Below, piece by piece: positions 1,940 through 50,296 of a stretch of DNA of 64,000 nucleotides. Made by a program: the position numbers and the translations under genes. The notes beneath the pieces are model-generated. The model was given only the letters and a program-made list of their open reading frames with translations, searched no databases and had not been told where the DNA came from. Origin of the DNA: a candidate division FCPU426 bacterium (GTDB lineage: Bacteria > Oederibacteriota > Muellerivitia > Muellerivitales > Muellerivitaceae); contig CAVYSE010000011.1 in NCBI GenBank assembly GCA_963771075.1, positions 141,508-205,507 on the forward strand. Direction: 5' to 3'. Each line of letters opens with the position of its first letter. The first letter of the stretch is position 1.

Positions 1940-3214
1940 ATGGGATCAACCCTCGCCAGCAAGGCCGAACCCGCGAATTTCGATTTAAAGGAAATCTTGG
2001 CGGGTGAAAGGGTGGAAGCCCACTTCCAGCCCTTGGTTTCCCTGAAGCGCCAGTGCGTGGTGGGCCTGGAGGGCCTTTCCCGGGGGATCTTGCCCGGGAG
2101 CCGGGCCCTGATCCCCCCCTACGAGCTTTTCCGCCAGGCCGCCCTCCAGAATTTGGAAATCGAGCTCGACCTGCTTTGCCGCAAAAAAATCCTGGATTCC
2201 TTCCGGAACTTGCACGCCCAGCACCCCGATTACATACTTTCCCTTAACCTGGACGAGTCCGTCCTGGAAATGGGGTTGATCGGATCGGGCCAGCTGAGGC
2301 AGGAAGTTTCCGAAATGGGGTTGAAGCCCTCCAACGTCGCCATCGAGATCGTGGAATACCGGGTGGAGGATCTCAAGGAGCTCCAGCATTTCGTCGAAAA
2401 ACTCAGGGATTTTGGCTTCCTGATCGCCCTGGACGACGTGGGAGCGGGGCATTCCAACCTCAACCGCATCCCCCTCATCAAGCCCGATATCCTGAAGATC
2501 GACCGTTACCTGGTGGAAAACCTCCAGGACGATTTTTATAAAAAGGAGATCATCAAATCCATGGTTCGCATGGGACGCCGCCTTGGGACGGTCATCATCG
2601 CCGAGGGGGTGGAAACCGCCGAGGAAGCCCAAGTGCTCATGGAAATGGACGTGGATATGATCCAGGGCTTTTATTTTTCCAGGCCCCAAAGGCCCGCCGA
2701 CCTGAACGAGTCAGGGACCCTGGATAAAGTGAAGGAGGTCGTGCGGGACCATAAAACGCGGTCCCTGGAGCATATGGGGGTCAAACGGCGCAACATGAGC
2801 CGGTTCCACTCGATCCTCCTGGAAATCCAGGTGGAGCTTTCCGGCCTGGGGGAGGATCGGTTCGGCCCCAAGCTCCAGGAAATGGCGCACCGTTTTCCCC
2901 AGGTGGAGTGTTTTTATGTCCTGGATCACGCGGGCTTCCAGCTCACCGAAAGCGTCCTCAACATGATTCCGGGGGAAAAACGCAATCCCCGGTTATTCCA
3001 TCCCTCCCCCCGGGGAACGGATCATACCGCCCGGGATTACTGCTATTACCTGACGGAGGCGGGAACGAACAAGACCAGCTTCCTCACGGAGCCCTACCTT
3101 TCCATGACCTCGGGCAACAGCTGCGTCACCCTTTCCTCCCTTTTCAAGACGGGGGAGGGGACGCCCTTCATCCTTTGCTTGGATATCGATACCCAGGCGC
3201 TTCGGCAGTCCTGA
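1940..3214 (+). CDS. EAL-domain c-di-GMP phosphodiesterase with a C-terminal cytoplasmic Cache/PAS-like sensor domain
   Basis: EAL signatures are present: EGLSR (EAL-loop variant), DDVGAGHSNL, KIDRYLV, EGVET, QGFYFSRP. The C-terminal ~170 aa show the Cache-type motif DHTARDYCYY...TEPYLSMTSGNSCVTLS. No TM helices are apparent. Confidence 0.8.
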   Translation: MGSTLASKAEPANFDLKEILAGERVEAHFQPLVSLKRQCVVGLEGLSRGILPGSRALIPPYELFRQAALQNLEIELDLLCRKKILDSFRNLHAQHPDYILSLNLDESVLEMGLIGSGQLRQEVSEMGLKPSNVAIEIVEYRVEDLKELQHFVEKLRDFGFLIALDDVGAGHSNLNRIPLIKPDILKIDRYLVENLQDDFYKKEIIKSMVRMGRRLGTVIIAEGVETAEEAQVLMEMDVDMIQGFYFSRPQRPADLNESGTLDKVKEVVRDHKTRSLEHMGVKRRNMSRFHSILLEIQVELSGLGEDRFGPKLQEMAHRFPQVECFYVLDHAGFQLTESVLNMIPGEKRNPRLFHPSPRGTDHTARDYCYYLTEAGTNKTSFLTEPYLSMTSGNSCVTLSSLFKTGEGTPFILCLDIDTQALRQS

Positions 3215-3225
3215 AAATTCGGTGG

Positions 3226-4491
3226 TCAGGTTTCCGGTACCAGCTCAATCAGGGTGATCTCCGGGGAAAGGCCGAAACGCACGGGCATTCCCCAATAGCC
3301 CGTGCCCGTGGAAACGTAAAGCTGGCTTGGGCCCTGCCGGAACAAACCCATGTCGTATTTCAAAAAAAGCTTGGCCAAGGACCATTTCAGGAACTTGAAA
3401 CCCAACTGGCCCCCGTGGGTGTGGCCGCTTAAGGTCAATTCCACCCTCCGCCGGACCGATTCCTTGAATAGTTGGGGATTGTGGGCCAGAAGCACCGTGG
3501 GGATGCCGGGGGGTTTATTCCCCAGGGCCTTTTCGAAATCGGGGGCGAACTCACCGATCATTCCCATCCTTCGGCCGCCCGGGTCGCCAATCCCCGCCAA
3601 CCAGAAACTTTCCCCTCCCCGTTTTATTTCCACACCCTCATTTACCAGCATCCGAATCTTGCTGTCCTTCAAGGCCCTCAGGGTCTTCGCAGGGTTGGCG
3701 TAAATGTCATGGTTTCCCAGGATGCCGTATTGGGGCAGGGTTTCGGGAAAAGCGGAGAATCCTTCCAGGAATTTGGGGATATAAAAGGGATCGTCGTCGG
3801 AAATATCCCCGCAAACGGTGAAGAGATCGGGGTTCTCCCGAAGGATGGCTCGGGAGAACCGCCTCAAGCGGGATAAACGGGTAAGGAGTCCGACATGGGT
3901 GTCGGAGACCATGGCGATTTTATAACCCTTAAACACGCTCCCCAAGCCTGGGATAACGACCCGAACCCTTTCAACGCGGACCATGAAAAGGGTTTGGAAG
4001 AAACCGAAAACGGTGATGAACCCGAGGGTTCCCAAAAAAAGGTTGAAGGGGACCTGGGCAAAGGCCCAGAAGGGATGTCCCCCCCAATGGAAAATGAGAA
4101 GCCACAGAATGGCCAGGACCAGCAAGAAGAGGGTAGAAAGCAAACTGAGGAAGGTCCAAAAAATGAAAAAAGGAGCAAGTAAAGTCTTCGCCCATCGGAA
4201 TAAAGGGGAGGAATGGCCCCGCAAGATCAGGGGTAAGAGAAGCCAAAGCAGGTTGCCCAGGATGGCGCCCAGCAAGACGATCAGCCAATGCTTGGGATAA
4301 AGGGTATAACCCGCCAAAATGGCGACCGCATTGAGAAGGAAAAAGACGCTGAGTACCAGGTTCCAGATGAGAACGGTGCGGCGTTTGGCCAAAAGGACCC
4401 TCCGGGAGGTTGAAGAGGCATCATATTCGGGTGGGGGTCGGCCCAAGTCAAGACGGAGAAAACCAACATCCACCACGAAGCCACCCGCCAT
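3226..4491 (-). CDS. Membrane-anchored calcineurin-like metallophosphoesterase (YkuE-like)
   Basis: N-terminal polytopic TM region followed by phosphoesterase motifs GDISDD, GNHD and GHTHGGQ. Convergent with the EAL gene. Confidence 0.8.
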   Translation of the reverse strand: MAGGFVVDVGFLRLDLGRPPPEYDASSTSRRVLLAKRRTVLIWNLVLSVFFLLNAVAILAGYTLYPKHWLIVLLGAILGNLLWLLLPLILRGHSSPLFRWAKTLLAPFFIFWTFLSLLSTLFLLVLAILWLLIFHWGGHPFWAFAQVPFNLFLGTLGFITVFGFFQTLFMVRVERVRVVIPGLGSVFKGYKIAMVSDTHVGLLTRLSRLRRFSRAILRENPDLFTVCGDISDDDPFYIPKFLEGFSAFPETLPQYGILGNHDIYANPAKTLRALKDSKIRMLVNEGVEIKRGGESFWLAGIGDPGGRRMGMIGEFAPDFEKALGNKPPGIPTVLLAHNPQLFKESVRRRVELTLSGHTHGGQLGFKFLKWSLAKLFLKYDMGLFRQGPSQLYVSTGTGYWGMPVRFGLSPEITLIELVPET

Positions 4492-5940: not shown

Positions 5941-6897
5941 ATGAAATCAAACCTAATGGGGATATTGATCCTTCTATCGGCCGCCGTGGTGGCGCAGGGT
6001 CTGGCCTATTTACTTCCCCCCTATTTCGCCGAACTTTTCATCTTCGCTCTCATTAACGCCATATTGGCGGTTTCCCTGAACCTGGTGAACGGCCTTTCAG
6101 GCCAATTTTCCTTAGGGCACGCAGGCTTCATGGCGGTAGGGGCATACACAGCCGCTTCGGTTAATGTTTTCCTATTAGGCTCGATGCACGGAACATTTGT
6201 GGGGGATCAATTTTCATTGATTCTCTCATTGTTGGCCGCGGCTGTGGCGAGCGCCATGGCGGGCTATTTGGTAGGGTTGCCTTCCTTAAGACTGAGGGGA
6301 GATTACCTGGCCATCGCTACCTTGGGATTCGGGGAAATTATCCGCGTGGTGATCCTGAATATTCAGGCCGTCGGTGGGGCCAGGGGTTTTATCGGCATTC
6401 CCGGAACGACCACCGCATTCTTGACGGCTTTGATTCTGGCCGCCTGCGTGGTGGCCACCCATCGTTTCGTGCTTTCGACCCACGGACGGGCTTTGTTAGC
6501 CATTCGGGAAAATGAGATCGCGGCAGAGGCAATGGGGGTCAATACCACACGCTTTAAAGTCCAGGCTTTTGTGGTTTCCTCGGCGGTGGCGGGTGTGGCA
6601 GGGGGGCTATTCGCCCATTACCTTTCCTTTATCAATCCCAGTTCCTTTGATTTCATGAAATCGGTGGAGATCGTGATCATGGTGGTCTTGGGGGGAATGG
6701 GCTCGGTTTCGGGCTCCATCCTGGCGGCCTTCATCATCACCTTTTTGCCCGAAGCTTTGCGGCCCCTTCAGCAAGTGACAGGAGTGGATTTGAGGATGGT
6801 GATCTATTCGCTCAGCTTGATTTTGATGATGCTTTTACGGCCCAAAGGCATGTTTGGCCGCAAGGAGCTGTGGCAGATGTTTCAAAGAAAGACTTAA
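5941..6897 (+). CDS. livM: Branched-chain amino-acid ABC transporter permease LivM
   Basis: Motifs GQFSLGHAGFMAVGAYTAA and GDYLAIATLGFGEIIR are typical of LivM. Polytopic membrane protein. Confidence 0.85.
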   Translation: MKSNLMGILILLSAAVVAQGLAYLLPPYFAELFIFALINAILAVSLNLVNGLSGQFSLGHAGFMAVGAYTAASVNVFLLGSMHGTFVGDQFSLILSLLAAAVASAMAGYLVGLPSLRLRGDYLAIATLGFGEIIRVVILNIQAVGGARGFIGIPGTTTAFLTALILAACVVATHRFVLSTHGRALLAIRENEIAAEAMGVNTTRFKVQAFVVSSAVAGVAGGLFAHYLSFINPSSFDFMKSVEIVIMVVLGGMGSVSGSILAAFIITFLPEALRPLQQVTGVDLRMVIYSLSLILMMLLRPKGMFGRKELWQMFQRKT

Positions 6898-9973: not shown

Positions 9974-10086
9974 TTTTTATTCCTTGAGTAAGTTGAGTTG
10001 GGAAATTAAGCCGATATTTTACACGGAAGAGAGGAAGGGGCCAGCCACAACCCAGGATACGGATGCCTTTATTAGGTGGTACGGGG

Positions 10087-11757
10087 TTAATGGATCAATA
10101 TAACTTTTTTGATCTCACGGTCATTGGGAACGGTTAAGTAAATAATGTAAATGCCGCTGGCGCAAGGGTTATTGGCGTAGTTCGTACCGTCCCAAGGGGG
10201 GCCGGGATAGGTGATGGGCTTAGAGGCGATTTGATCGGGAACCAGGGCTTTCACGAACTCTCCGGCGGAGTTGTAAATCTTTAAGGAATAGGGCCCTGGG
10301 AAGAGGCTGTATCCCACGAGGATGGAAAGGGGGCCTTGGGAGGGTTTAAAGACATTTTGGCTCACGTAAAAGCGGTCGGTATAGGGAATGGTCGCGGTGG
10401 GGGACAATGTGATCGTGGGTGTTAGGGTAATAGTCGGGGTCAAGGTGATGGTGGGCGTTAGGGTGATGGTGGGAGTTGAAGTATGGGTCGGGGTTAAGGT
10501 TTGGGTGGGGGTGTAGGTGGGAGTGGAGGTTTGAGTGGGGGTAAAGGTGTAGGTGGGAGTGGGTGTGACCGTAAGGGTAAGGGTGACCGTGGGCGAAAGG
10601 GTGATGGTAGGAGTCGGAGTGACGGTGAAGGTGTAGGTGAGGGTGGGTGTAAAGGTGGGCGTGGGCGTGATCGTCTGGGTGTTGGTTGGAACGCAATTGC
10701 CCGAAACGGGCAGGGCCACGGTGACAGGTGCGGAATTTGAACTGCCCCAACTTACCCCGGCGGCATTGAAGATGGAGCAGGGTGAGCCTTGAACCGTATT
10801 TAAATCGGCCAGGTAGTCCATCACAGTGACGCAAGCGCCATTGCCGCCGAAACCGAGCGGAAATTCGAAATCCATCGAGGATCCAATTTGCTGGGTGGAA
10901 TACATTTGGGAGGGCGGGCTGTAGCTGAGCCATGGCCCTTGGTACCCGCCAGTGGAAGCCAAGTTCTGGTCCCAAACCGTGACGGGGCCGTTGACGGGCG
11001 CTCCGCTGTTGCACACCACGAGGGTATAGGGCTCATTAGGGGTGTCGTTGGATTGGGGATAGGAAGAAAACCCCGGGATCAACTGGACGGAAAAGGTGGG
11101 AGGCGTGTAGGGGACCGGATTTAAATTAAAGGTCCCCAGGTAATAAAGATTTTGAAGGGCATTGGTGGCGGTTCCCGATGAGTTGAGGGAAGAGTCGGGC
11201 TGGATTTGGCCCGTCTCAGGGTTGTACATGGGTTGCAACCATGGGTCGTCCCCTGCGGCCACGGTGACTGGCAGGGTCGTGAAATATTCGGCGCTGACCG
11301 CGGCGGAATAATTGGGTGAATACCAGGGGTTGCCCGACCCATCCAGGGTGGGTGGGGCCGAGGCGGAAACGTCGTTGTACATCATGTAGCCCGGGTCGGT
11401 ATTGGAAAAATAAGCGTGGGAACCGCTGGCGCAGGCGACGTCAATGACCCAGGCGGCCTGTAGTGAAATCAGGGACGTGTTAAGGTTCTCAACGGCGACC
11501 GTATTGGAACCCGTGTTGAAATAACCTGCAGGGATGGGGAAAGTGGGAGGGACCCCGGGAGCGGTGACGAAGGTGACGGGCCCGATCGGGCCGTTCCCAT
11601 TGACCCAAACATCCATGATGTCATCGGCGGAGCCGTAGAGGGTGGCGGCGGAGGGGGAACAGGTTTGTGCCCAAGCGCTTACCGAGAAGCCCAAAAGGGA
11701 CCAAGCGATGAGCAGGATCGGTAAGGCTTTCTTAAGGGAGTTTGAAATCTTGTTCAA
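10087..11757 (-). CDS. Secreted Cys-containing protein with a long Thr-Pro-rich linker and a C-terminal por-secretion-type (TIGR04183/FlgD-Ig-like) sorting domain
   Basis: Signal peptide, then about 100 aa of TPTxT repeats. The C-terminus FYVSQNVFKPSQGPLSILVGYSL...LKIYNSAGEFVKAL...GIYIIYLTV...KKVILI matches the por_Secre_tail pattern. Starts at TTG. Confidence 0.7.
   Translation of the reverse strand: MNKISNSLKKALPILLIAWSLLGFSVSAWAQTCSPSAATLYGSADDIMDVWVNGNGPIGPVTFVTAPGVPPTFPIPAGYFNTGSNTVAVENLNTSLISLQAAWVIDVACASGSHAYFSNTDPGYMMYNDVSASAPPTLDGSGNPWYSPNYSAAVSAEYFTTLPVTVAAGDDPWLQPMYNPETGQIQPDSSLNSSGTATNALQNLYYLGTFNLNPVPYTPPTFSVQLIPGFSSYPQSNDTPNEPYTLVVCNSGAPVNGPVTVWDQNLASTGGYQGPWLSYSPPSQMYSTQQIGSSMDFEFPLGFGGNGACVTVMDYLADLNTVQGSPCSIFNAAGVSWGSSNSAPVTVALPVSGNCVPTNTQTITPTPTFTPTLTYTFTVTPTPTITLSPTVTLTLTVTPTPTYTFTPTQTSTPTYTPTQTLTPTHTSTPTITLTPTITLTPTITLTPTITLSPTATIPYTDRFYVSQNVFKPSQGPLSILVGYSLFPGPYSLKIYNSAGEFVKALVPDQIASKPITYPGPPWDGTNYANNPCASGIYIIYLTVPNDREIKKVILIH
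10395..10700. repeat. Degenerate tandem 9/18-nt repeats (GGT-rich on plus strand) encoding the TPTITL-type linker
   Basis: Repeated GGTGATGGTGGG / GGTGTAGGTGGGAGT units are visible. The alternative-frame His-rich ORF (10346-11014) is an artefact of this repeat. Confidence 0.7.
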
Positions 11758-11925
11758 TCGGGTCTTCCCTTCGACATTGAATGATTCGATCGGCCGGGCG
11801 CTTTGTAAAAATACACCCTTATCCCGAAAGAGTTAAGGGAGATAGGGTATTTTTTAGGGAGGGAAATGAAAGCCCTTTTCTGGGAATGGACCCGGAGTTT
11901 GGCTTGGATTGAGCGGGACTCGGGG

Positions 11926-12388
11926 TTATTCCCTAGGCTTGGCCCAGCCAAGGTGGTTGGCCATGTGAAGGGCGGTCAAGGTGGTCCATTGCTCCTTGTT
12001 CATCTTTCCGAAGAAGGGATGTTCGGCCCAGGGTCCCTTGTGTTTTTCAAACGCGTCGAGGGTTTTTCGTAGGGCCGCCAAGGCCGTCATTTCGTCCCCT
12101 TCGATTTTTTCGGCCTTTAAGCTTTTATCCGACGAACCTACTCTCGGGGGAATAAAACCTTGGCGAAATACTTTTTTTAAACCGATGGGACCGATCAAGC
12201 GGCGCATCCACCAGGCCCCCAAGGAAGGGAAGGAAGTCATGCATGGATTGGGAACCCTTGTTGAGGTGGGTGAGGATTTGGTAATAGGACCAGTTTCCGA
12301 TCGTGACGACTGGCACTTTTTCCAGCCGGTCCAGTTCGGCCCGCGCCTCGTTCAATGTCTTGAACCTCAATTCGCGCCTCACGCCCAT
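11926..12388 (-). pseudogene. DUF1569 family paralog disrupted by a frameshift (two overlapping ORFs, 12125-12388 and 11926-12240)
   Basis: The N-terminal half (MGVRRELRFKTLNEARAELDRLEK...GNWSYYQILTHL) and the C-terminal half (...ALHMANHLGWAKP) each align to the intact neighbour at 12400-12867 but lie in different frames. The shift is near 12230-12250. Confidence 0.6.
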
Positions 12389-18895: not shown

Positions 18896-19996
18896 TCAGG
18901 CGGGCTGGTAAGCGCAAAAGGGGTCCGCTCCCATGATGTCGCCCGTTAATGCATAGGCTCTTGCTCTCGACCCGCCGCAATGGTACCGGTATTCACACCG
19001 GCCGCATTTCCCTTTCAAAGAATCCGAATCTCTCAAGGTTTTAAACATCTCGTTTTCTTGGTAGATCTTGGAGAGGGGTTCAGTTTTGACGTTCCCTCCG
19101 GGTATCGGAAGAAATCCGCTTGGGCAAATCTCGCCAATATGGGAGATAAACACGAAGCCGCGGCCATCATTTACGCCCAAGGCAGCCCGGATCAGCCCAG
19201 GGCTTGTTCCGGCTTTCATTGCCTTTTCGAGTTCCTCCGGTTTCACCCCGGACCGTTGCAAAATGATGCGGCGGAAATGATGGGCTTCCGTTGTTTTAAT
19301 ATCAAACCAACCTTCCTTCAAAATGTCATAAAGCTGGTTCAAAACAACCTCGGATTCGCCCGCCGTGAGGGCCTGTTTTTTATCAGCTCGGCCTGTGGGG
19401 ACGAGAAAGAAGACGGACCAACGCTCAATGGCATAATCGCGGATGACCTTGGCGATTTCCCAAATCTGGTCCTGATTATGCCGGGAGACGGTGGTGTTTA
19501 CCTGAAGCTTGATTCCCAAGTCCTTAAGCCAGCCCATGGTTTCAACGCATCGGGCGAAAGTTCCCGGTATTCCGCGGAAGGTGTCGTGGGTGTTAGCGTC
19601 CGACCCGTCAATTGAGATGGAAACCCGGTTCAGGCCGGCTTTCTGCAACTCTTTCAATTTTTCAAGCGTAAGCAAGGGGGTGACCGAAGGTGCCAGCGCG
19701 AAGGTTAACTCCCGTTTCGAGCATTCCTGTATAAGCAAGGGAAGGTCATCCCTTTTTAGTGGGTCCCCGCCCGTGATCACAAAAAGGGGGATTTTCCATT
19801 CGGCGATTTGTCGGATGAGATCGAGGGCTTGGGGGGTGTCCAATTCCCCGGGGTAGGGTTTGGATTCGGCGCTGGCGCGGCAATGGACGCAGGCAAGGTC
19901 GCAGGCCCGGGTGGCCTCCCAAATGGCGATGAATGGTTTTTCCGAGTAACGATGGTTGGGTTTAGGACTAATGCCAACGTTAGGATGGTTATTCAT
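18896..19996 (-). CDS. Radical SAM enzyme with a C-terminal SPASM domain (peptide/cofactor maturase-like)
   Basis: CX3CX2C motif (TRACDLACVHC) near the N-terminus. The C-terminal SPASM-like cysteine cluster is GKCGRCEYRYHCGGSRARAY...FCAYQP. Confidence 0.8.
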   Translation of the reverse strand: MNNHPNVGISPKPNHRYSEKPFIAIWEATRACDLACVHCRASAESKPYPGELDTPQALDLIRQIAEWKIPLFVITGGDPLKRDDLPLLIQECSKRELTFALAPSVTPLLTLEKLKELQKAGLNRVSISIDGSDANTHDTFRGIPGTFARCVETMGWLKDLGIKLQVNTTVSRHNQDQIWEIAKVIRDYAIERWSVFFLVPTGRADKKQALTAGESEVVLNQLYDILKEGWFDIKTTEAHHFRRIILQRSGVKPEELEKAMKAGTSPGLIRAALGVNDGRGFVFISHIGEICPSGFLPIPGGNVKTEPLSKIYQENEMFKTLRDSDSLKGKCGRCEYRYHCGGSRARAYALTGDIMGADPFCAYQPA

Positions 19997-20269: not shown

Positions 20270-20287
20270 TTATGACACCTCTCATAA
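20270..20287. promoter_or_regulatory. Palindromic motif site TTATGAC-acct-CTCATAA (~85 nt upstream of the hemerythrin gene)
   Basis: One mismatch to the 7-4-7 consensus TTATGAC-N4-GTCATAA. A weaker copy lies at 20117-20134. Confidence 0.45.
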
Positions 20288-20370: not shown

Positions 20371-20781
20371 ATGAGTTTGATCGATTGGAAGGACAATTAC
20401 AGTGTTGAGATCGTTGAAATAGACCATCAACATCAGGGTTTTTTCCGACTGATCAACGGTCTTTATGACGCCCTGATCGAGGAAAAAGAAAAGGATTCTT
20501 TAGGGGCGATCATCCTTGAGTTGGAAGCCTACGCGAAAAATCACTTCAAAACCGAAGAAGACTACTTTATCGAATGGGATTTTCCCGGTGCGGAAAAACA
20601 CCGGTTGGAGCATGAGACCTTTACTCGAAACTTGGCCCGGTTTAAAGCCGGGTTCGAGTCGGGTGTCCAAATCGGCATTTCGGTTCAGTTATTGAGTTTT
20701 CTCAGTGCCTGGTTGAAAAACCATATTTTGGTCAGCGACCATCAATACGCCGATTTTATAAAGCAAAAAGCCGTGAAATAA
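20371..20781 (+). CDS. Bacteriohemerythrin (hemerythrin HHE cation-binding domain)
   Basis: The sequence ...W.DNYSVEIVEIDHQHQGFF...HF..EE..F...DFPGAEKHRLEHE shows the typical His/Glu diiron ligands. Confidence 0.8.
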   Translation: MSLIDWKDNYSVEIVEIDHQHQGFFRLINGLYDALIEEKEKDSLGAIILELEAYAKNHFKTEEDYFIEWDFPGAEKHRLEHETFTRNLARFKAGFESGVQIGISVQLLSFLSAWLKNHILVSDHQYADFIKQKAVK

Positions 20782-20854
20782 ACCGGACCATTTATTTCAC
20801 TGAATTTCCATTGATTCCAGCGCGTAAATCCTCGCCATCGGCTTTAATGTTTTT

Positions 20855-21529
20855 ATGAACAGTCCCTCTGAATCACCCCTTTTGAATGTCCTTTTCGAGA
20901 ATGAGGATCTCATTGCCGTCGATAAACCCGTCGGGCAAACGGTAATCCCGGCGCGGAATCAAAAGGATATCCTTCCTCCCCTTGTGGAAATGGTCTCAAA
21001 AAAAATAGGAAAAAAAGCCAATGTGGTTCACCGGTTGGACCAAGACACCAGCGGAATCGTGGTATTCGGGAAGAACGCCCAAACCCATCGGGAACTCTGC
21101 CTTCTCTGGGAAAAAAGAGAAGTCGTTAAGTTATATAAGGCCCTAGTTTGGGGAAAGGTTTCTTCCGGGGAAGGAATAATCGATCATCCTTTGCGACCTT
21201 TTGGTTCGGGCCGTATGGGGGTCGATCCAAACGGAAAGAAAAGTCAAACCCGATATCGGTTACTTCAAAGGGGGACAGGGTCTTCCTTATTGGAGGTGGA
21301 GCCCTGGACCGGGCGACGACATCAAATAAGGGTCCATTTTTATCACTTAGGGTTCCCTGTGATGGGGGATCCGCTTTACGGTCAGGAAAGGCCGGTGGGA
21401 GGTGTGTCCCGGCTTATGCTTCATGCCTATCAGTTGGTCATCCCCCTTCGGGGCCAGACATTGACGATCAATTGCGAGCCAGGAAAAGATTTTGTCAAAA
21501 TCTTAAATGAAAACACAGAAATGAAATAA
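20855..21529 (+). CDS. RluA-family pseudouridine synthase
   Basis: Catalytic motif VVHRLDQDTSGIVVFGKN and RRHQIRVH are present. Confidence 0.85.
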   Translation: MNSPSESPLLNVLFENEDLIAVDKPVGQTVIPARNQKDILPPLVEMVSKKIGKKANVVHRLDQDTSGIVVFGKNAQTHRELCLLWEKREVVKLYKALVWGKVSSGEGIIDHPLRPFGSGRMGVDPNGKKSQTRYRLLQRGTGSSLLEVEPWTGRRHQIRVHFYHLGFPVMGDPLYGQERPVGGVSRLMLHAYQLVIPLRGQTLTINCEPGKDFVKILNENTEMK

Positions 21530-21619
21530 GCCTCCCCTTTTTATAATCAACCCCTTTGTAATCGAAAACCCTTGGTCAAACATACAAGAAGATCTGCGGA
21601 TGAACTATAAAAAGGGCCG

Positions 21620-21637
21620 TTATGACTTAAGTCATGA
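21620..21637. promoter_or_regulatory. Palindromic motif site TTATGAC-ttaa-GTCATGA (~85 nt upstream of the RIC/ytfE-like gene)
   Basis: The core ATGACTTAAGTCAT is a perfect palindrome. Confidence 0.5.
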
Positions 21638-21722
21638 ATCTTTGTGAGGCGACCCCCTACCCTAAAGTGTGTAAGGATCAGAACCGGACGGTTTGGGAAC
21701 AGTCCCATCCCTAGGAGAATGA

Positions 21723-22460
21723 ATGAAAATCAGTCCCGATTGGACGGTTCGGGAAGTCGCTTCGCAAATCCAAGCTTCCATTCCGCTTTTTGAATCGCTT
21801 CATATTGACTATTGTTGCAATGGCCAACAAACATTGAAAGAGGCCTGTGTTACTTTGGAAATCCCCGTGGAAAAAGTCTTGGATTCGCTAGAGCGCATGG
21901 TGAACAAAACCCCCTCCAATCCAGATGCGCCCAACCCATGGGCTAAAAAAAGTATTCCGGAGCTTATTGACCATATCCTGGAAATCCATCACCCATTCAC
22001 GCGAGTCCAGCTCAATCGATTGATGAAATTGTCCGAAAAGGTTTCGCGCCTACATGCGGTCCGCCATCCCGAATTGATCCAATTGAACGGTTTGTTGGTC
22101 AAAATGGCCGAGGAGTTGGAAAGCCACATGGTGAAGGAAGAAGAAGTGGTTTTCCCCTGCCTCCGGAAACTTTGGGATTCGAGGCGAAAGAGAAAAAAAT
22201 TGGAAAATCCTTTTTTCCAAGGGGGGCAGGAAGATCCGGTCCATGTACTCGTCTGGGAACATGGAATGACAGGGGAGGAATGGCAAGAAATCCACCGTTT
22301 AACCAAAGATTACACCACGCCCGCGGATGCTTGCGTGTCCTATCGGTCCCTGTACCAGGGGTTGAAAGAGCTGGAGGATGATTTGCACCGGCACATTCAC
22401 CTGGAAAATAACATCCTATTTTACCGTCTCCAGCAATTGGGACTTTTGGGCTCCCTTTGA
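21723..22460 (+). CDS. Iron-sulfur cluster repair di-iron protein (RIC / YtfE / ScdA family)
   Basis: N-terminal ScdA_N motif (LHIDYCCNGQQTL) followed by hemerythrin-like His/Glu repeats. Confidence 0.8.
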   Translation: MKISPDWTVREVASQIQASIPLFESLHIDYCCNGQQTLKEACVTLEIPVEKVLDSLERMVNKTPSNPDAPNPWAKKSIPELIDHILEIHHPFTRVQLNRLMKLSEKVSRLHAVRHPELIQLNGLLVKMAEELESHMVKEEEVVFPCLRKLWDSRRKRKKLENPFFQGGQEDPVHVLVWEHGMTGEEWQEIHRLTKDYTTPADACVSYRSLYQGLKELEDDLHRHIHLENNILFYRLQQLGLLGSL

Positions 22461-22500
22461 TTCATCCGAAGCGACAACTCAAGAAAGGCTGCTTTTTCAA

Positions 22501-23280
22501 ATGATGACCATGAATCAAATGGACCTAAGGGGGATTGCCCACGGCTGGGAGCAAAAAATCCTTTCCGCTTTTGATGGTTTGAACGAGGGACAAGCGTTGG
22601 AAATCCTCGTGGATTGGGACCCAACCCCACTACATTTCCTGTTATTGAAGGAAAGAACCAGGCTTTTCCGATGGGAAAACCGGGAAAAAAAACCGGATCA
22701 TTGGAAGATCCGCCTCCTGCGAGTGGCGCATGGATTGGGGGAAGCCCCGGCCTCGGAACCGCCGGTTTTGACTCCCCGGCCTAACATCAGCCCGCGACCC
22801 GCCTGGATTGACGATTTGAACCCTTCCTGTGGACTTTTTTTGGACATTCGACCCCTTACTGAGAAAGGGCTGGACCCCTTTCAAATGATTGTCCAATCGG
22901 CGAAAGAGTTAAAACCCGGCCAACACCTGCACTTGGTCCAAAATGAGCAGCCGGAGTCTTTTATTTGTGCCCTGGGTCGGTTAGGGTATGAGGGGTTTGC
23001 CGAAATGAAAGGCGGGGTTTGGAACGCCTATTTCCGAAAGGGTAAGATTCCGCCCACCGGCCAACCGGTAATGGAACTGGATGTGAGACGGTTGACGCCG
23101 CCCCTTCCACTATTGAAGGTGCTGGAATCCCTTCCCTTGATCTCATCGGAAGGCGTTTTGAAGGTATTCTTCCCAAATCGCCCGGATAGTTTGATCGAGA
23201 AACTCCAGGCGCATGGTTTTGAGGTGAAGTGGGAAGCTTCCGAGGGTGGGGCGTTTGTACTTTGGATATGGAAAAAATAA
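22501..23280 (+). CDS. Protein composed of three tandem DUF2249-like modules
   Basis: Three repeats of the pattern LD[LIV]R.L.P..P...[IV]......L..G..L.[VL].....P: LDLRGIAHGWEQKIL..., LDIRPLTEKGLDPFQMIV..., LDVRRLTPPLPLLKVL.... The ORF in the track extends upstream (22378) in overlap with ytfE. ATG 22501 is the first start after the ytfE stop. Confidence 0.6.
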   Translation: MMTMNQMDLRGIAHGWEQKILSAFDGLNEGQALEILVDWDPTPLHFLLLKERTRLFRWENREKKPDHWKIRLLRVAHGLGEAPASEPPVLTPRPNISPRPAWIDDLNPSCGLFLDIRPLTEKGLDPFQMIVQSAKELKPGQHLHLVQNEQPESFICALGRLGYEGFAEMKGGVWNAYFRKGKIPPTGQPVMELDVRRLTPPLPLLKVLESLPLISSEGVLKVFFPNRPDSLIEKLQAHGFEVKWEASEGGAFVLWIWKK

Positions 23281-23379
23281 TCCAAAACCAGCGAAAGCTG
23301 AGTACCGATGTATGCCGGCGTGAATCGACGGGCCATGAACGGTCCTTGGATTCATGAACAATGTTGATTGGGAGCGACG

Positions 23380-24819
23380 ATGACAGAACCGATGATTATT
23401 CAGGGAGGAATGGGCGCCGGGGTTTCCAATTGGGTCTTGGCCCGCGCGGTTTCCCAGACAGGCCAGATGGGGGTGGTTTCCGGAACCGCTTTGGATTCGA
23501 TTATGGTCCGCCGGTTGCAAACCGGCGATATGGATGGAGCCATGCGACGGGCCCTGGTCGCCTTTCCCGACCCTGCCGTGGCCAAGCGCATTTTGGACCG
23601 TTATTTCATTCCCGGCGGCAAAAAAGATCATGAGCCTTTTCGATTGATCCCCATGTTCACCCTTACTCCGCCGAAAGAACTGGTGGAACTCAATGTGGCC
23701 GCCAATTTCGCGGAAGTTTGGCTCGCGAAGGAAGGGCACTCGGGCAAGGTCGGCATCAATTTCCTTGAAAAGATTCAAATGCCCCTCCTTTCCTGCATCT
23801 ATGGGGCCCTGTTGGCGAACGTGGATTATGTCCTCGTGGGCGCGGGCATTCCCCGGGCCATTCCGGCGATCCTCGATAAGTTGTCCCAGCATGAGGATGC
23901 CTCCATGAAGATCTATGTCCAGGGTGCCTCCGCTGAGGAGGAAAGCATCATGACCTTTCGCCCCCGGGATATCCTGTCGGAGATAGGCGAGGCGCTCAAG
24001 CGGCCCCGGTTTCTGGCCATCATCGCCTCGGAGGTCTTGGCCCTAACGCTTGCCAAGAAGTCCACGGGCAAGGTGGACGGCTTCGTAGTGGAAGGCCCCA
24101 CGGCCGGGGGGCATAACGCCCCGCCTCGCGGGCCCCTCCAGCTCAATGACAGGGGAGAACCGCTTTATGGGGTCAAGGATGAGGTGGACCTGCAGAAGAT
24201 CAAGGCCATCGGCCTTCCCTTTTGGGTGGCGGGTTCCATGGCCGACCCGGCTAAGCTCAACGCGGCTTTGGAAGCCGGTGCGGCGGGCCTGCAGGTGGGG
24301 TCCGTGTTCGCTTATTGCGAGGAATCAGGCCTCGCCGACTGGATCAAAAAAAAGGTGATCGAGGGTTTGCGGGCGGGATGGGTGCATGTTTTTACCGACC
24401 CCAAGGCCTCCCCAACGGGTTTTCCCTTCAAGGTGGTGAATGTCCCTGGGACCAATTCCGAATTAGGGGATTATCAAAAGCGAAAACGTATCTGCGACCT
24501 GGGATACTTGCGGAGCCTTTATAAGCGGAAAGACGGAACTCCGGGTTACCGTTGCGCCAGCGAACCCCACGAAGCCTATCTGCAAAAGCAGGGTGAAATG
24601 GCCAACACGGAGGGTCGCAAATGCCTTTGCAACGGTTTAATGTCCAATATCGACTTGTCCCAATCCCAGAAGGATGGGAGCGTAGAACGGGCGCTCGTTA
24701 CTTCCGGTGACGATGTGGGCAGGATCCTGAATTTCCTCAAGGGCGGCAAGGAATCCTATTCGGCCATCGAGGTGGTCGAGTATCTCCTGGGTTCCCGGAT
24801 TCCCGCGGCGGCGGTTTAA
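23380..24819 (+). CDS. Nitronate monooxygenase / 2-nitropropane dioxygenase (NMO, FabK-like) family FMN oxidoreductase, long form
   Basis: The N-terminal motif MIIQGGMGAGVSNWVLARAVSQTGQMGVVSG is typical of NMO. RBS GGGAG precedes ATG 23380. The overlapping minus ORF 23143-23892 is judged spurious. Confidence 0.75.
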   Translation: MTEPMIIQGGMGAGVSNWVLARAVSQTGQMGVVSGTALDSIMVRRLQTGDMDGAMRRALVAFPDPAVAKRILDRYFIPGGKKDHEPFRLIPMFTLTPPKELVELNVAANFAEVWLAKEGHSGKVGINFLEKIQMPLLSCIYGALLANVDYVLVGAGIPRAIPAILDKLSQHEDASMKIYVQGASAEEESIMTFRPRDILSEIGEALKRPRFLAIIASEVLALTLAKKSTGKVDGFVVEGPTAGGHNAPPRGPLQLNDRGEPLYGVKDEVDLQKIKAIGLPFWVAGSMADPAKLNAALEAGAAGLQVGSVFAYCEESGLADWIKKKVIEGLRAGWVHVFTDPKASPTGFPFKVVNVPGTNSELGDYQKRKRICDLGYLRSLYKRKDGTPGYRCASEPHEAYLQKQGEMANTEGRKCLCNGLMSNIDLSQSQKDGSVERALVTSGDDVGRILNFLKGGKESYSAIEVVEYLLGSRIPAAAV

Positions 24820-24855
24820 TCGGCCTTCTCCATGAGGGACTCAAAAGTGACTTAA

Positions 24856-24873
24856 TTATGACAGGGGTCATGT
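24856..24873. promoter_or_regulatory. Palindromic motif site TTATGAC-aggg-GTCATGT (upstream of the phosphoribosyltransferase gene)
   Basis: Matches the recurring 7-4-7 palindrome. Intergenic between the NMO gene and the PRTase gene. Confidence 0.5.
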
Positions 24874-25002
24874 GGCGCCCCGGTACCGGGGACCATAATC
24901 AAATCCAACTTCGCCGATTGGTTTTTGTAAGTTGAAGTTTTGCCCCGCGTCGAAACAATTTGGGGGGAACCTTTTAAGTCGCGTGTTGGGGATCAAACGA
25001 AC

Positions 25003-25704
25003 ATGAAACTCAAATTAAAATCCAAGTTTCCCTTTCGGGACCGAGACCAAGCCGCCCGGATGCTTTGCGAGAAACTTTTCCATTATCGAGGGCTGAACCC
25101 GCTGGTCCTCGGCCTTTCTCCCGCGTCCGTGCCCATGGCCTGTCTCTTGGCCCGTTACCTGAAGGGTGAGGCGGATATTTTATTGGTCGAGAAGATTTAT
25201 TCTCCCGAAAACCCCCATTTGGCGTTGGGAGTACTGGCGGAAGGCGGCGCTTTTACGCTCGCGCCCGGGGGAGGCCAAATGTGGGTTCCGCCCCATTTTC
25301 TGGAAGAAGAAATGCGCAAACTGTCCCACGGCCTTCAGGAACGCCGGAAATTATATACCCCCCAAAGGGCGCTCCTCTCCTGCGCGAACCGCGTCGTGAT
25401 CCTGATCGACGATCTCGCCAAAACGGGGGTAAGCCTTTGGGCCGCCTATCGGGAGGTGGATGGCCGGCATCCCGCCCAGGTGGTGGTAACGGTCCCGGTG
25501 GCGACTCCCGCGGCCTTGGAACTGTTGCGACGGGAAACGGAAGAAGCCTTTGCCCTCTGGTCCGGCGATCAATGGTCTACCCCGTCGGAGATTTACGAAA
25601 TCAACGTGAAGATCAGCGAAGAGGATGCCGCGGAATTCCTGCATCCCGTCGATCCGGACCTGTTGGTTTCCCGTGGACGAGCCCACTCGATTCCCGCCAA
25701 CTAA
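25003..25704 (+). CDS. Type I phosphoribosyltransferase-fold protein
   Basis: PRPP-binding motif VVILIDDLAKTGVSLWAA. ATG 24940 is an alternative start. Confidence 0.65.
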   Translation: MKLKLKSKFPFRDRDQAARMLCEKLFHYRGLNPLVLGLSPASVPMACLLARYLKGEADILLVEKIYSPENPHLALGVLAEGGAFTLAPGGGQMWVPPHFLEEEMRKLSHGLQERRKLYTPQRALLSCANRVVILIDDLAKTGVSLWAAYREVDGRHPAQVVVTVPVATPAALELLRRETEEAFALWSGDQWSTPSEIYEINVKISEEDAAEFLHPVDPDLLVSRGRAHSIPAN

Positions 25705-25754
25705 ACTCCTTGTGCCTATTTGGAAGCGCGCCCCTATAATGAGCCTTTCTTAAA

Positions 25755-26519
25755 TTGATAGGAGTGGTATCCCTTTTGTCCCCCTTCGTTTGGATGCTCC
25801 TGAGCGTGATCGTGGTAAGCCTCCTATCCCTGATCGGGATATCCCTTTTCGCGCTCAGCCATAAAACTTTCCATGCCCTTGTCTTCGTCCTGGTGGCCTT
25901 GGCCGTGGGGGCCCTCTTTGGGGACGCCTTTATCCATCTTTTGCCCGAGGCCATGAGGGAATCCTCCCAAGCCCTGGACGCCTCCCTGACGGTCATCGGC
26001 GGCATCCTCCTCTTTTTCATTCTCGAGAATTTCCTCCACTGGCGCCATCAGCACTCGGACGAGCATGAGGAAATCCAACCTTACGGTTATTTAAACCTGA
26101 CGGCGGACATGGCCCACAATTTTATCGATGGCCTCTTGATCGGGGGTTCCTACTTGGCGGGCATGAAGCTGGGAATGGCCTCAGCCCTGGCGGTGCTATT
26201 GCACGAGCTACCACACGAATTCAGCAATTTCGGAATCCTGGTGAAATCGGGGTTCTCCAAACAAAAGGCGATCTTTTTGAATTTCCTCACCGCCCTTACG
26301 GCCATCCTGGGCGGGCTGGCGGCCTGGTGGCTTGGGGGATCGGTGGCGGGATTTCTACGGGTCCTTTTGCCCCTGACCGCGGGGAGTTTTATCTATATCG
26401 CAGGAAGTGACCTGGTGCCCCAACTCCACAAGGACGTTAAAAGCGCCCGGGCCCTGGTCCAGTTCGTCGCCATCCTGACGGGCGTGGGGCTGATGCTCCT
26501 TATCAAGTTGTTGGAATAA
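25755..26519 (+). CDS. zupT: ZIP-family divalent metal transporter (ZupT-like)
   Basis: HNFIDGLLIGGSY...HELPHEFSNFGIL is the ZIP signature with conserved His residues in TM4/5. Start codon uncertain (TTG 25755 or ATG 25794). Confidence 0.8.
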   Translation: MIGVVSLLSPFVWMLLSVIVVSLLSLIGISLFALSHKTFHALVFVLVALAVGALFGDAFIHLLPEAMRESSQALDASLTVIGGILLFFILENFLHWRHQHSDEHEEIQPYGYLNLTADMAHNFIDGLLIGGSYLAGMKLGMASALAVLLHELPHEFSNFGILVKSGFSKQKAIFLNFLTALTAILGGLAAWWLGGSVAGFLRVLLPLTAGSFIYIAGSDLVPQLHKDVKSARALVQFVAILTGVGLMLLIKLLE

Positions 26520-49392: not shown

Positions 49393-49597
49393 AATTACCA
49401 TGAAAAGATTATAGAAATAAGCCAAATTTCTTCTTTTTACTCTTTGGAAATCCTCTTTATTTTCATGACTGAAATCATAGAAATAACGGGCTCGATTTTT
49501 GTCGTAATCCATTATGTTTCTTCGGCCCTATACCTTGCCCTTTAGTTGGCATGTCGTTACAATTTATAAAAGGAGTTGAAAAGGGGAGGAATGCGCA

Positions 49598-50296
49598 ATG
49601 CTTCATTCACAAACATCGCCCGGCAAACAACCTAACATGGTTGGCCGCTCCTTTATTTCCTCCCTGGAAGTTTTCAAAAAGATCCCATCTTCCCACCTGC
49701 TTGAACTCGAAAAGAAAATGGTTGAGCGCAAGTATGCCAAGGGTGAATCCCTTTTCCTCGAAGGCGACCCGGCAGAATACGTCTGGTTTGTCAAGGAAGG
49801 CCATGTCAAGGCCGTTATCCATACCGCCAATGGGCGGGATTTGACCCTCTGTATGGTGGGGGCGAATAGTCTTTTCGGGACCTGCTGCTGTTTCGGAGGG
49901 GGAGAATATCCCTGTCACAGCGTGGCGGAAACTGAAACCACAGTCGTGGCCCTTCCCATGCAGGAGTTCATCAATCTTTTGGATAAATACCCGGAAGTTG
50001 GTAAGTCCATCGTTTTCCACCTTTCCAAACGCTTACGCCAGGCCAAAGATATGCAGACCTTTGACCAGGAAAGCGTGGAAAAACGGATTCTTCACCTTCT
50101 CGTGAACCTTGTGGCTGAATTCGGCAACACCATCCCCTTGACCCGGCGTGAGATCGCGGAAATGACTGGAACAACGGTGGAAACTTGTATCCGAACCTTT
50201 TCCAATCTTGAAAAGGAAGGGTTGGTTTCCAGCGCTAGGGGAAAGATTACAGTAAAAAGCGTACAAGATTTGATCGATCGGCAGGAGGAACTTTAA
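49598..50296 (+). CDS. CRP/FNR-family transcriptional regulator with a Cys cluster in the sensor domain
   Basis: cNMP-binding-like beta-roll (KGESLFLEGDPAEYVWFVKEGHVK), then the HTH REIAEMTGTTVETCIRTFSNLEKEGLV, whose recognition helix is FNR-like (E..R conserved). Unusual TCCCFGGGEYPC cysteine cluster. Confidence 0.8.
   Translation: MLHSQTSPGKQPNMVGRSFISSLEVFKKIPSSHLLELEKKMVERKYAKGESLFLEGDPAEYVWFVKEGHVKAVIHTANGRDLTLCMVGANSLFGTCCCFGGGEYPCHSVAETETTVVALPMQEFINLLDKYPEVGKSIVFHLSKRLRQAKDMQTFDQESVEKRILHLLVNLVAEFGNTIPLTRREIAEMTGTTVETCIRTFSNLEKEGLVSSARGKITVKSVQDLIDRQEEL

Follow-up and report, generated by a model that had tools for sequence, protein, structure and literature searches.

To our knowledge, the DUF2249 domain (PF10006) has no known biochemical function, and what the N-terminal ScdA_N domain does in the RIC/YtfE di-iron proteins is unsettled. 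DUF2249 recurs in denitrification and nitric oxide (NO)-stress clusters from Thermus to rhizobia to haloarchaea. Here, we analyzed 64,000 nucleotides (nt) of DNA from a bacterium of candidate division FCPU426 (contig CAVYSE010000011.1, positions 141,508 to 205,507; this whole stretch is called the window below), and in particular its positions 20371 to 26519, where a gene for a protein with three DUF2249 modules (ACB, from its modules A, C, and B) lies directly downstream of a RIC/YtfE gene. An earlier note on this DNA had read the region as a putative nitrosative/redox-stress cluster. Our comparisons suggest that its triple-DUF2249 protein is the fused counterpart of a barely characterized pair of proteins, DrpA and DrpB.

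DrpA and DrpB were described in Thermus thermophilus, where the drpAB operon lies downstream of nar; DrpA contains one DUF2249 module, and DrpB contains a DUF1858 domain plus two DUF2249 modules (Chahlafi et al. 2018, PMC6282519). DrpA was reported to be periplasmic and DrpB to be membrane associated, and drp expression is driven by the master regulator DnrT (PMC6282519). Loss of either protein raises the expression of DnrS/DnrT and of nitrate reductase, and in drpA and drpB mutants the nitrate reductase protein is made and shows little activity (PMC6282519). Most DUF2249 proteins, about 2,500 of 3,500, have a single module (PMC6282519).

By alignment and profile score, the window protein is a predicted single-chain fusion of a DrpA/DrpB-type gene pair, with module A corresponding to DrpA and modules C and B corresponding to the DUF2249 modules of DrpB. 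When plasmids were searched with it (tblastn), two adjacent genes were matched collinearly. On plasmid pTTJL1801 of Thermus thermophilus JL-18, DUF2249 genes of 72 and 273 codons stand directly after narGHJI and a transporter gene (narGHJI-K), and this gene pair fits the published description of drpAB (PMC6282519). Residues 6 to 72 of the window protein matched the 72-residue DrpA-like protein with 32% identity (BLASTP; E = 1e-11), and residues 85 to 239 matched residues 81 to 252 of the 273-residue DrpB-like protein with 31% identity (E = 2e-15), a P-x-W motif included. Profiles that we built for the three module subtypes scored 100 (A), 63 (C), and 59 (B) bits on the Thermus proteins. The gene and its modules are arranged as follows.

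22501..23280, + strand: three-module DUF2249 protein (ACB), 259 residues plus stop; PF10006, 89.7 bits in three stretches
22513..22725, + strand: module A (residues 5 to 75), canonical DUF2249 or DrpA type; PF10006, 49.3 bits; lacks both conserved histidines
22828..23043, + strand: module C (residues 110 to 181), first DUF2249 type of DrpB; subtype profile, 123 bits; PF10006, 18.2 bits alone; aligned with residues 81 to 180 of the DrpB-like protein
23068..23277, + strand: module B (residues 190 to 259), TusA-like type, second module of DrpB; PF10006, 31.8 bits, and TusA, 23.7 bits (segment alone)

The mechanically called open reading frame (ORF) of the DUF2249 gene, 22378 to 23280, overlaps ytfE. 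All eight of the eight close homologues begin with M-T-x-x-Q-x-D-L-R, and the ATG at 22501, 40 nt past the ytfE stop, is therefore the start; the earlier note was right on both counts, having remarked on the overlap and placed the ATG just after ytfE. It had also described three DUF2249 modules fused in 260 residues. There are indeed three modules in one chain of 259 residues, although they are three distinct subtypes in the order A-C-B and not copies of one. With the gathering score of PF10006 at 29.5 bits (that of TusA, PF01206, is 28.6), the whole protein passes, as do segments A and B on their own, which agrees with the assignment made in that note; the middle module, C, falls below the Pfam threshold when scored singly but is strongly recognized by its subtype profile. 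Compared with the DUF2249 family at large, then, the window protein is alike in passing the gathering score and in its predicted TusA-like fold, and it differs in having three fused modules of three subtypes, the middle one subthreshold alone.

Two features of the chain stand out when it is aligned with its relatives. Ahead of module C lies a linker with a conserved P-x-W motif, and a cysteine (C110) is invariant in the eight close homologues. In module A, the canonical motifs RH and DHDP are replaced by W-E and D-W-D-P, and these columns vary among the eight close homologues; at least 80% of 153 A-type modules have these two histidines.

An AlphaFold2 model computed from 11 sequences (mean predicted local distance difference test score, 83) has three beta-alpha-beta-alpha-beta-beta modules with predicted disordered linkers at residues 85 to 95 and 183 to 187. 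Searched one module at a time with Foldseek, it matched SirA/TusA/YeeD-like structures with a probability of 1.0 (for example, 3HZ7, with a template modeling [TM] score of 0.76 on the target). Whole-chain Foldseek matches to EPSP synthase and MurA (E = 3e-4) were rejected as homology: the TM score is 0.23 and the root mean square deviation about 12 Å, and repeated beta-alpha-beta-alpha-beta-beta units explain them. The domains of these enzymes are made of three such units, and the modules of ACB could conceivably pack in a similar pseudo-threefold way. When the PDB was searched by sequence with the family profile, no solved structure of a DUF2249 protein turned up, and the TusA-family matches were marginal (E = 0.2 to 0.6).

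The likeness to DrpA/DrpB extends to gene order (A and then C-B) and to the position of both systems behind a promoter region that is, or is predicted to be, under the control of a Crp/Fnr-family protein. The differences are several. The window protein is one polypeptide, not two; it has module A at its N terminus and no DUF1858 domain; its module A is devoid of the conserved DrpA histidines; and it has no nar, nor, or heme-copper-oxidase-like neighbors, their place being taken by RIC, a nitronate monooxygenase (NMO)-like flavoprotein, a phosphoribosyltransferase-domain protein (PRT), and a ZIP transporter. The missing domain has a counterpart next door. When the ScdA_N domains of RIC proteins were compared with the N termini of DrpB-like proteins (hhalign), the probability was 90.5% (E = 1.3e-6 over 56 columns), which indicates that ScdA_N and the DUF1858 domain of DrpB are homologous. 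The RIC protein upstream carries the homologue of the domain that ACB lacks, and RIC and ACB together therefore hold the DrpA and DrpB domain set plus a di-iron hemerythrin domain.

For a survey of architectures, a profile search of 1.84 billion representative proteins returned 813 matches at E values up to 1e-3; subtype profiles were built from the alignment, and the modules of 227 fetched relatives were classified with them. The subtypes and the architectures were as follows.

Subtype A: canonical DUF2249, with conserved RH and DHDP
Subtype C: the LDVRP..G.DPF..I type
Subtype B: the ELDVRgLEPPePM type, the most TusA-like
CB: 101 of 227, of which 62 have an N-terminal extension of about 100 residues; DUF1858 was found in four of four tested
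A alone: 46 of 227, most with a long N-terminal extension, mostly a hemerythrin domain by precomputed Pfam annotation
AC: 20 of 227
ACB: 16 of 227, of which 8 are the close family of the window protein
CBA: 6 of 227
AAA to AAAAA: 13 of 227

Among the best 150 representatives (clusters at 50% identity), 30 had three or more modules and 8 had them in the order A-C-B, in a ranking that is skewed to multimodule proteins because the query has three modules. Pfam bears out genuine proteins with three, four, and five DUF2249 modules. Every A-C-B representative is metagenomic and a member of a very small cluster, and none has a name more specific than DUF2249. A-C-B fusions are thus uncommon and not unique; their rarity had been anticipated by the earlier note, although proteins of three to five modules, and of the orders A-C-B and C-B-A, are already public under the DUF2249 name. 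The link between DUF2249 and hemerythrin or RIC that was drawn there is real as well, in that natural fusions of A-type modules to RIC exist. In seven such proteins (P0160, P0176, P0179, P0182, P0016, P0022, and P0023; 405 to 660 residues), two to five A modules are followed by a complete RIC, with ScdA_N bearing a DFCCGG motif and a hemerythrin domain; where RIC is fused to A-type modules in these other lineages, it is instead adjacent to an ACB gene in the window. As judged from these profiles, DUF2249 modules fall into three subtypes that travel as A plus C-B, and C-B is habitually joined to a domain of the DUF1858/ScdA_N type, by fusion or, as here, by adjacency.

Where A and C-B are separate genes, a small A gene usually stands directly before the C-B gene, in the company of Crp/Fnr regulators and of nar, nirK, nor, nos, or heme-copper-oxidase-like genes. 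In Agrobacterium, norCBQD is followed by A (101 residues), C-B (177 residues), nnrS, nirK, and a Crp/Fnr gene, and the query is collinear over the A and C-B genes. In Ralstonia, the A gene lies between nirK and norB, with nirK divergent from A-norB. On pSymA of Sinorhizobium meliloti, the order is A, a 452-residue hypothetical protein, C-B, and a metal-sulfur cluster assembly factor, with nnrS and nirK nearby. The A gene stands directly upstream of the C-B gene in at least 18 of 80 metagenome loci. A Pfam census of neighbors at 21 loci (137 ORFs) was headed by the COX1 family (29 occurrences), with Crp/Fnr proteins second (11 occurrences); NosD/NosZ/NosL, multicopper nitrite-reductase-like proteins, Rrf2, and NorB were also found. 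Two distant A-C-B fusions, P0024 and P0159, adjoin a COX1-family gene of 451 to 454 residues and an FeS_assembly_P gene, and the A-C proteins of Verrucomicrobia adjoin a gene with a weak match to the cytochrome c' family (PF01322). We also observed that in most A-plus-CB loci (L024 to L071) a membrane protein of about 420 residues (COX1 family by Pfam in the census) and another of about 151 residues directly follow the C-B gene, and that the hypothetical proteins of 383 and 144 residues after Thermus drpB resemble this pair.

In the window, every sizeable gene between 20371 and 26519 is on the + strand. The genes of the cluster, with a divergent conserved neighbor and apart from ACB itself, are the following.

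18896..19996, - strand: radical SAM/SPASM protein of the TIGR04053 family (AhbD/NirJ-like); NCBIfam TIGR04053, 447.2 bits (cutoff, 395); conserved cluster neighbor
20371..20781, + strand: bacteriohemerythrin, single domain, 136 residues; PF01814, 53.3 bits; NF033749, 126.9 bits (cutoff, 84)
20855..21529, + strand: RluA-family pseudouridine synthase, 224 residues, between the hemerythrin and RIC genes; PF00849, 98.3 bits
21723..22460, + strand: RIC/YtfE di-iron protein, ScdA_N plus hemerythrin-like domain, 245 residues; TIGR03652, 224 bits (cutoff, 204.7); Pfam ScdA_N and Hemerythrin
23380..24819, + strand: NMO-like flavin mononucleotide (FMN) oxidoreductase, 479 residues, with an alternative TTG start at 23368; PF03060, 59.7 bits (versus 28)
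25003..25704, + strand: PRT, 233 residues by gene caller (mechanical ORF from 24940); PF00156, 33.5 bits
25776..26519, + strand: ZIP-family metal transporter, 247 residues by gene caller (mechanical ORF from 25755); PF02535, 147.4 bits

The hemerythrin, RIC/YtfE, and DUF2249 genes that the earlier note named are all present on the + strand and match their family models. In addition to scoring above the NF033749 cutoff, the bacteriohemerythrin translation shows the ligand motifs H..HxxxE..HxxxH..HxxxxD. The alignment of RIC with E. coli YtfE (5FNN; E = 5.5e-31) puts the ligands of the di-iron site, H/H/H-E/H/H-E, in register and shows a DYCC motif (Cys pair); by its equivalog score, its ScdA_N domain with the Cys pair, and its di-iron ligands, RIC is a full member of the RIC/YtfE family. 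In this it is like E. coli YtfE, Staphylococcus aureus ScdA, DnrN, and NorA, from which it differs in having an ACB gene 40 nt downstream; E. coli ytfE presumably stands alone. The RluA gene, which was not named in that note, has no obvious link to the other genes of the cluster, and PRT and ZIP, also unnamed there, occupy the 3' third of the region. As for "NMO," the PF03060 match stands, and the name is, by our comparisons, a superfamily label only: there is no match to an NCBIfam equivalog, and the best PDB matches, nitronate monooxygenases at E = 1e-5, cover the FMN half alone (about residues 229 to 336). The window protein thus shares with the nitronate monooxygenase/FabK superfamily the FMN-binding TIM-barrel segment, and it exceeds the solved nitronate monooxygenases in length by about 130 residues.

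The closest relatives of the cluster are metagenome-assembled genomes of candidate division FCPU426 (L003 to L009), with about 60% identity in ACB; L100 is a deeper relative from a sister lineage. In the relatives at the 60% level, the genes run radical SAM (- strand), RluA, RIC, ACB, NMO-like, PRT, and ZIP. The RluA gene keeps its position in L003 to L005 and L008, and the radical SAM gene is at the same place in these four and in L100. In L100, the order is radical SAM (- strand; 117 to 1217), P-type ATPase, Crp/Fnr (- strand), RIC, ACB, NMO-like, a second RIC, PRT, PilZ, and ZIP, with identities to the window proteins of 45% (ACB), 59% (RIC), 67% (NMO-like), 72% (ZIP), 70% (radical SAM), and 44% (PRT). 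The Crp/Fnr gene of L100 is divergent from the RIC-ACB-NMO unit, and a Crp/Fnr gene also adjoins ACB in the P0159 contig. RIC-ACB-NMO-PRT-ZIP is therefore a conserved unit in FCPU426 and in the deeper relative. The hemerythrin gene is absent in L003 and L009 and present in L008. Between RluA and ACB in L008 (7697 to 8004), about 250 nt, from a conserved palindrome (7743) to the ACB start, are apparently noncoding.

That palindrome, TTATGAC-N4-GTCATAA, was scanned as TTATGAN6TCATAA with up to two mismatches and occurs 10 times in the window, where 1.67 occurrences were expected; in 100 shuffles, the count never came to 10. The copies discussed here (no strand assigned) and the candidate regulator are located as follows.

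20270..20287: TTATGACACCTCTCATAA, centered about 92 nt upstream of the hemerythrin ATG
21620..21637: TTATGACTTAAGTCATGA, centered about 94 nt upstream of the RIC ATG
24856..24873: TTATGACAGGGGTCATGT, upstream of the PRT-ZIP genes
36290, 38306, 45887, and 47187: further copies
49463..49480: TCATGACTGAAATCATAG, 118 nt upstream of the sole Crp/Fnr gene in the window
49598..50296, + strand: Crp/Fnr-family regulator, candidate binder of the palindrome, with cNMP_binding and HTH_Crp_2 domains; the only Crp/Fnr ORF in the window

The sites before the cluster genes have counterparts in the relatives. The one upstream of hemerythrin has an orthologue at 6420 in L008, with a second copy at 6290; the one upstream of RIC is an identical 18-mer at the orthologous place in L003 and L009, TTATGACTTAGGTCATCA in L008, and TTATGACTTAAATCATCA in L100; and the one upstream of PRT-ZIP corresponds to TTATGACAGGGGTCATGC in L003 and L009. 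ACB follows a Crp/Fnr-type site in all of the relatives, L008 among them. An inverted repeat of the form TGA-N6-TCA that is intergenic, is kept in L003, L008, L009, and L100, and has a family regulator in the same window is a predicted Crp/Fnr-family site. RIC, ACB, and the NMO-like gene appear to form one operon behind a palindrome of this TGAC-N4-GTCA class, and hemerythrin(-RluA) and PRT-ZIP appear to be two further units behind copies of it. The cluster under a shared palindrome that the earlier note had described is therefore borne out as regards a conserved unit and a conserved palindrome; hemerythrin (L003 and L009) and RIC (L008) are not constant members.

Eight good sites precede genes for hemerythrin, RIC, PRT-ZIP, VIT1 plus a histidine kinase, acetyl-CoA synthetase (acs), acetyl-CoA hydrolase/transferase plus an HDAC-like deacetylase, a porin followed by satP, and the Crp/Fnr protein. 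Of these products, VIT1 is an iron exporter, the porin is of the BBP2 type, and SatP/YaaH is an acetate channel. The predicted regulon thus mixes acetate use, metal transport, and di-iron proteins. Rodionov et al. (2005, PMC1274295) described an HcpR consensus, wyTTGACnnnnGTCAArw, at the promoters of hcp, frdX, and norB. The window palindrome shares with such boxes the 5-4-5 geometry and the TGAC/GTCA core, and its outer base is A and not T (aTGAC); the window regulon differs in that it includes acetate and metal-transport genes, and neither hcp nor nor is among the annotated palindrome-adjacent genes. A box, CTGACTTAAGTCAA, lies 67 to 86 nt upstream of the A (drpA-like) genes in 12 of 14 A-plus-CB loci (L025, L029, L036 to L039, L042, L047, L050, L052, L057, and L071), which may be close kin and not 12 independent observations; L060 has TTGACATAAGTCAA. 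The 12-mer TGACTTAAGTCA is common to CTGACTTAAGTCAA and the palindrome upstream of RIC in the window and matches the HcpR-type consensus (PMC1274295).

The window regulator has the recognition helix TVETCIR, with Val-Glu at CRP positions 180 and 181 and Arg at 185, and five sensor-domain cysteines in LCMVG..GTCCCFGGGEYPCH, which were not found in the Crp/Fnr proteins next to the A-plus-CB loci. In its Cys-rich sensor domain, the window regulator is unlike the HcpR, DNR, and NnrR proteins, in which the cysteine motif of FNR is reported to be absent (PMC1274295). The identity of the residues at CRP positions 180 and 181 correlates with the bases contacted (PMC1274295), and Val at 180 fits a base other than G at the contact position of R180. 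The palindrome 118 nt upstream of its gene suggests autoregulation, possibly with Fe-S- or thiol-based sensing. The Crp/Fnr protein next to RIC in L100 was considered as its orthologue, but the two share 29% identity and differ in the recognition helix (REVVSR in L100, VETCIR in the window), and orthology is not evident.

The best overall explanation of these observations, for which our confidence is evenly balanced, is that ACB is a fused DrpA/DrpB-type protein that acts as a docking or carrier partner of di-iron proteins and is encoded in a RIC-ACB-NMO operon behind a Crp/Fnr-type palindrome. ACB would be a cytoplasmic, soluble, noncatalytic protein with a TusA-like fold and no TusA-type cysteine. 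It would work with di-iron proteins (RIC or, where RIC is missing, hemerythrin) when O2 or NO threatens iron centers, either handing over a small ligand or metal or relaying the state of the di-iron site to the Crp/Fnr regulator; the relay variant is modeled on Thermus, where DrpA and DrpB modulate DnrS/DnrT. The NMO-like flavoprotein might supply reducing equivalents as an electron source, and ZIP might adjust the metal supply. A role of the cluster in protecting iron centers from NO or O2 is plausible by association, and it is in this sense that we infer NO or O2 buffering and Fe-S repair. The link to nitrogen-oxide metabolism that is contained in the nitrosative/redox-stress reading of the earlier note is strong by association, through the nor, nir, nos, and nar surroundings of ACB relatives, whereas the palindrome turned out not to be NO specific.

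Several observations weigh against the docking-partner explanation. The usual partners of A plus C-B, the heme-copper-oxidase-like protein of 420 residues and the membrane protein of 151 residues, were not found by profile among the ORFs of the 64-kb window, and there is no second DUF2249 gene in the window. The periplasmic and membrane sites of Thermus DrpA and DrpB are impossible for a fused soluble protein without a visible signal peptide. In L008, ACB has no RIC gene beside it, and hemerythrin is retained; RIC is therefore not an obligate partner. With both module A histidines replaced, any ligand site that they form has probably been lost here. The arrangement of the modules relative to one another is uncertain in the AlphaFold2 model (predicted TM score, 0.41). 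The palindrome-preceded genes look like a global regulon and not an NO-specific one; with acetate and iron-transport genes among them, the palindrome therefore does not show NO-specific control. Finally, the NMO-like family is very widespread and often occurs without a RIC or DUF2249 neighbor.

Other explanations fit part of the same evidence. ACB might be mainly a regulatory switch that, like Thermus DrpB, restrains an activator of the Crp/Fnr family as long as a signal is absent, tuning the whole palindrome regulon with its acetate and metal genes. The elevated DnrS/DnrT and nitrate reductase expression of Thermus cells without DrpA or DrpB (PMC6282519) would be expected of such a switch, and Crp/Fnr genes are both the second most frequent neighbors of the A-plus-CB loci and adjacent to ACB in P0159 and L100; moreover, the Crp/Fnr-type site is kept before ACB even where RIC is missing. 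However, ACB has no DNA-binding or known signaling domain, the window regulator lies 26 kb away and shares only 29% identity with the adjacent one of L100, and the Thermus model is itself tentative and leaves some mutant phenotypes unexplained (PMC6282519). The fusions of A modules to RIC, too, suggest that DUF2249 and the di-iron protein are direct physical partners, and we consider a mainly regulatory ACB unlikely. It also seems improbable to us that ACB is a chaperone for metal-center maturation or iron trafficking that serves di-iron, heme-copper, or Fe-S proteins and has no sensing role, although several observations favor it: the poorly active nitrate reductase of the DrpA/DrpB mutants (PMC6282519); the PF01883 "metal-sulfur cluster assembly factor" genes that adjoin A or C-B genes in Thermus, S. 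meliloti, P0024, and P0159; a Haloferax DUF2249 domain fused to a P-loop Fe-S carrier protein (PMC11218638); the family assignment of RIC as an iron-center repair protein; and the sharing of the palindrome by the ZIP and VIT1 metal transporters. Against it, the window protein has no conserved Cys/His cluster, its A-module histidines being gone and only one Cys being invariant, and the PDB profile search offers no solved DUF2249 structure to set beside it.

The TusA-like fold of each module raises the question of a TusA-type sulfur carrier, and in a whole-protein scan Pfam TusA does score 30.1 bits on module B, above its gathering score. Module B is like TusA, SirA, YedF, and YeeD in fold and in the N-terminal motif L-D-x-x-G/R-L. 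It is unlike them at the catalytic position: LDVRRLTPPLP aligns with LDMVGEPCPYP of YedF, so that the cysteine of the "CPxP" motif is a proline (LTPPLP versus EPCPYP), and no cysteine stands in that column in any of the three modules. On the segment alone, DUF2249 (31.8 bits) outscores TusA (23.7 bits). Persulfide transfer is therefore not expected, and we rejected this reading of ACB, which we regard as scarcely tenable, because the persulfide cysteine is absent. Lastly, the genes could be mere neighbors without a common task, with the palindrome marking a global regulon of carbon or redox functions and with an NO/O2 reading that derives from gene names only. Copies of the palindrome before acetate, porin, and iron-export genes would agree with this, as would the dispensability of hemerythrin and of RIC in some relatives and the lack of an established NO link for RluA, PRT, and the NMO-like protein. 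Chance co-location would hardly have kept the order RIC-ACB-NMO-PRT-ZIP down to 45% ACB identity; nor would it readily account for the recurrence of RIC-NMO adjacency in L019, the existence of RIC-DUF2249 fusions, or the overwhelming occurrence of ACB relatives in nor, nir, nos, and nar surroundings, and we think it quite improbable.

What the locus chiefly offers is a testable link of DUF2249 modules to the ScdA_N/DUF1858 domain that RIC-type proteins carry. Taken together, the subtypes that travel as A plus C-B, the joining of C-B to DUF1858/ScdA_N, and the A-RIC fusions make up a testable hypothesis of a physical partnership between DUF2249 and RIC-type proteins. Should C-B prove to dock on ScdA_N/DUF1858, two unexplained parts, the N terminus of RIC/YtfE and the fold of DUF2249, would gain their first functional handle, and RIC, ACB, and the flavoprotein would form a new machine that protects iron centers from NO or O2, with a Cys-rich Crp/Fnr protein as its regulator. 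One evolutionary scenario, which, like this docking and machine, we offer with considerable doubt, is that in FCPU426 and its sister lineage a DrpA/DrpB-type module was fused into a soluble protein and moved from membrane heme-copper-oxidase/NO-reductase-like partners to cytoplasmic RIC, hemerythrin, and an NMO-like flavoprotein. The kind of system is not new, being that of the barely characterized DrpA and DrpB; what is new here is a form that is fused, without DUF1858, without the histidines, and in another genomic context. Soluble and in a single chain, A-C-B is also a convenient form for biochemistry and structure work.

The NMO-like gene has a wider distribution of its own. Homologues at 60 to 68% identity number in the thousands across lineages. 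It adjoins RIC genes also in L019 and L100. In L019 (750 to 5443), a RIC gene, two genes for hemerythrin-domain proteins of about 260 residues, a second RIC gene, and an NMO-like gene (63% identical to that of the window) stand in a row. A gene for a P-type cation ATPase comes before this series, as it also does in L100, and the hemerythrin-domain pair stands where ACB would be. L016 has an NMO-like gene with neither RIC nor radical SAM beside it and without a DUF2249 neighbor. In L017, with neither RIC nor DUF2249 nearby, the NMO-like gene is beside a divergent radical SAM gene (2738 to 3850) that is 65% identical to that of the window, and radical SAM plus NMO-like may be a pairing of its own. 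The closest named relatives of the window radical SAM protein are the AhbD heme b synthase and NirJ.

Two general scans complete the description of the window. An Rfam scan of its entire length gave zero matches, and generic scans for sigma-70 promoters and intrinsic terminators between 20000 and 26700 gave fewer matches than shuffles, which makes them uninformative on operon boundaries. Away from the cluster, a strong local GC skew (0.32 at 10001 to 12000) stems from an ORF of 556 residues (10087 to 11757, - strand). Its product, probably a secreted protein, has a hydrophobic stretch near the N terminus and a long linker of Thr-Pro repeats, made of TPTxT units and encoded by tandem repeats of 18 to 54 nt.

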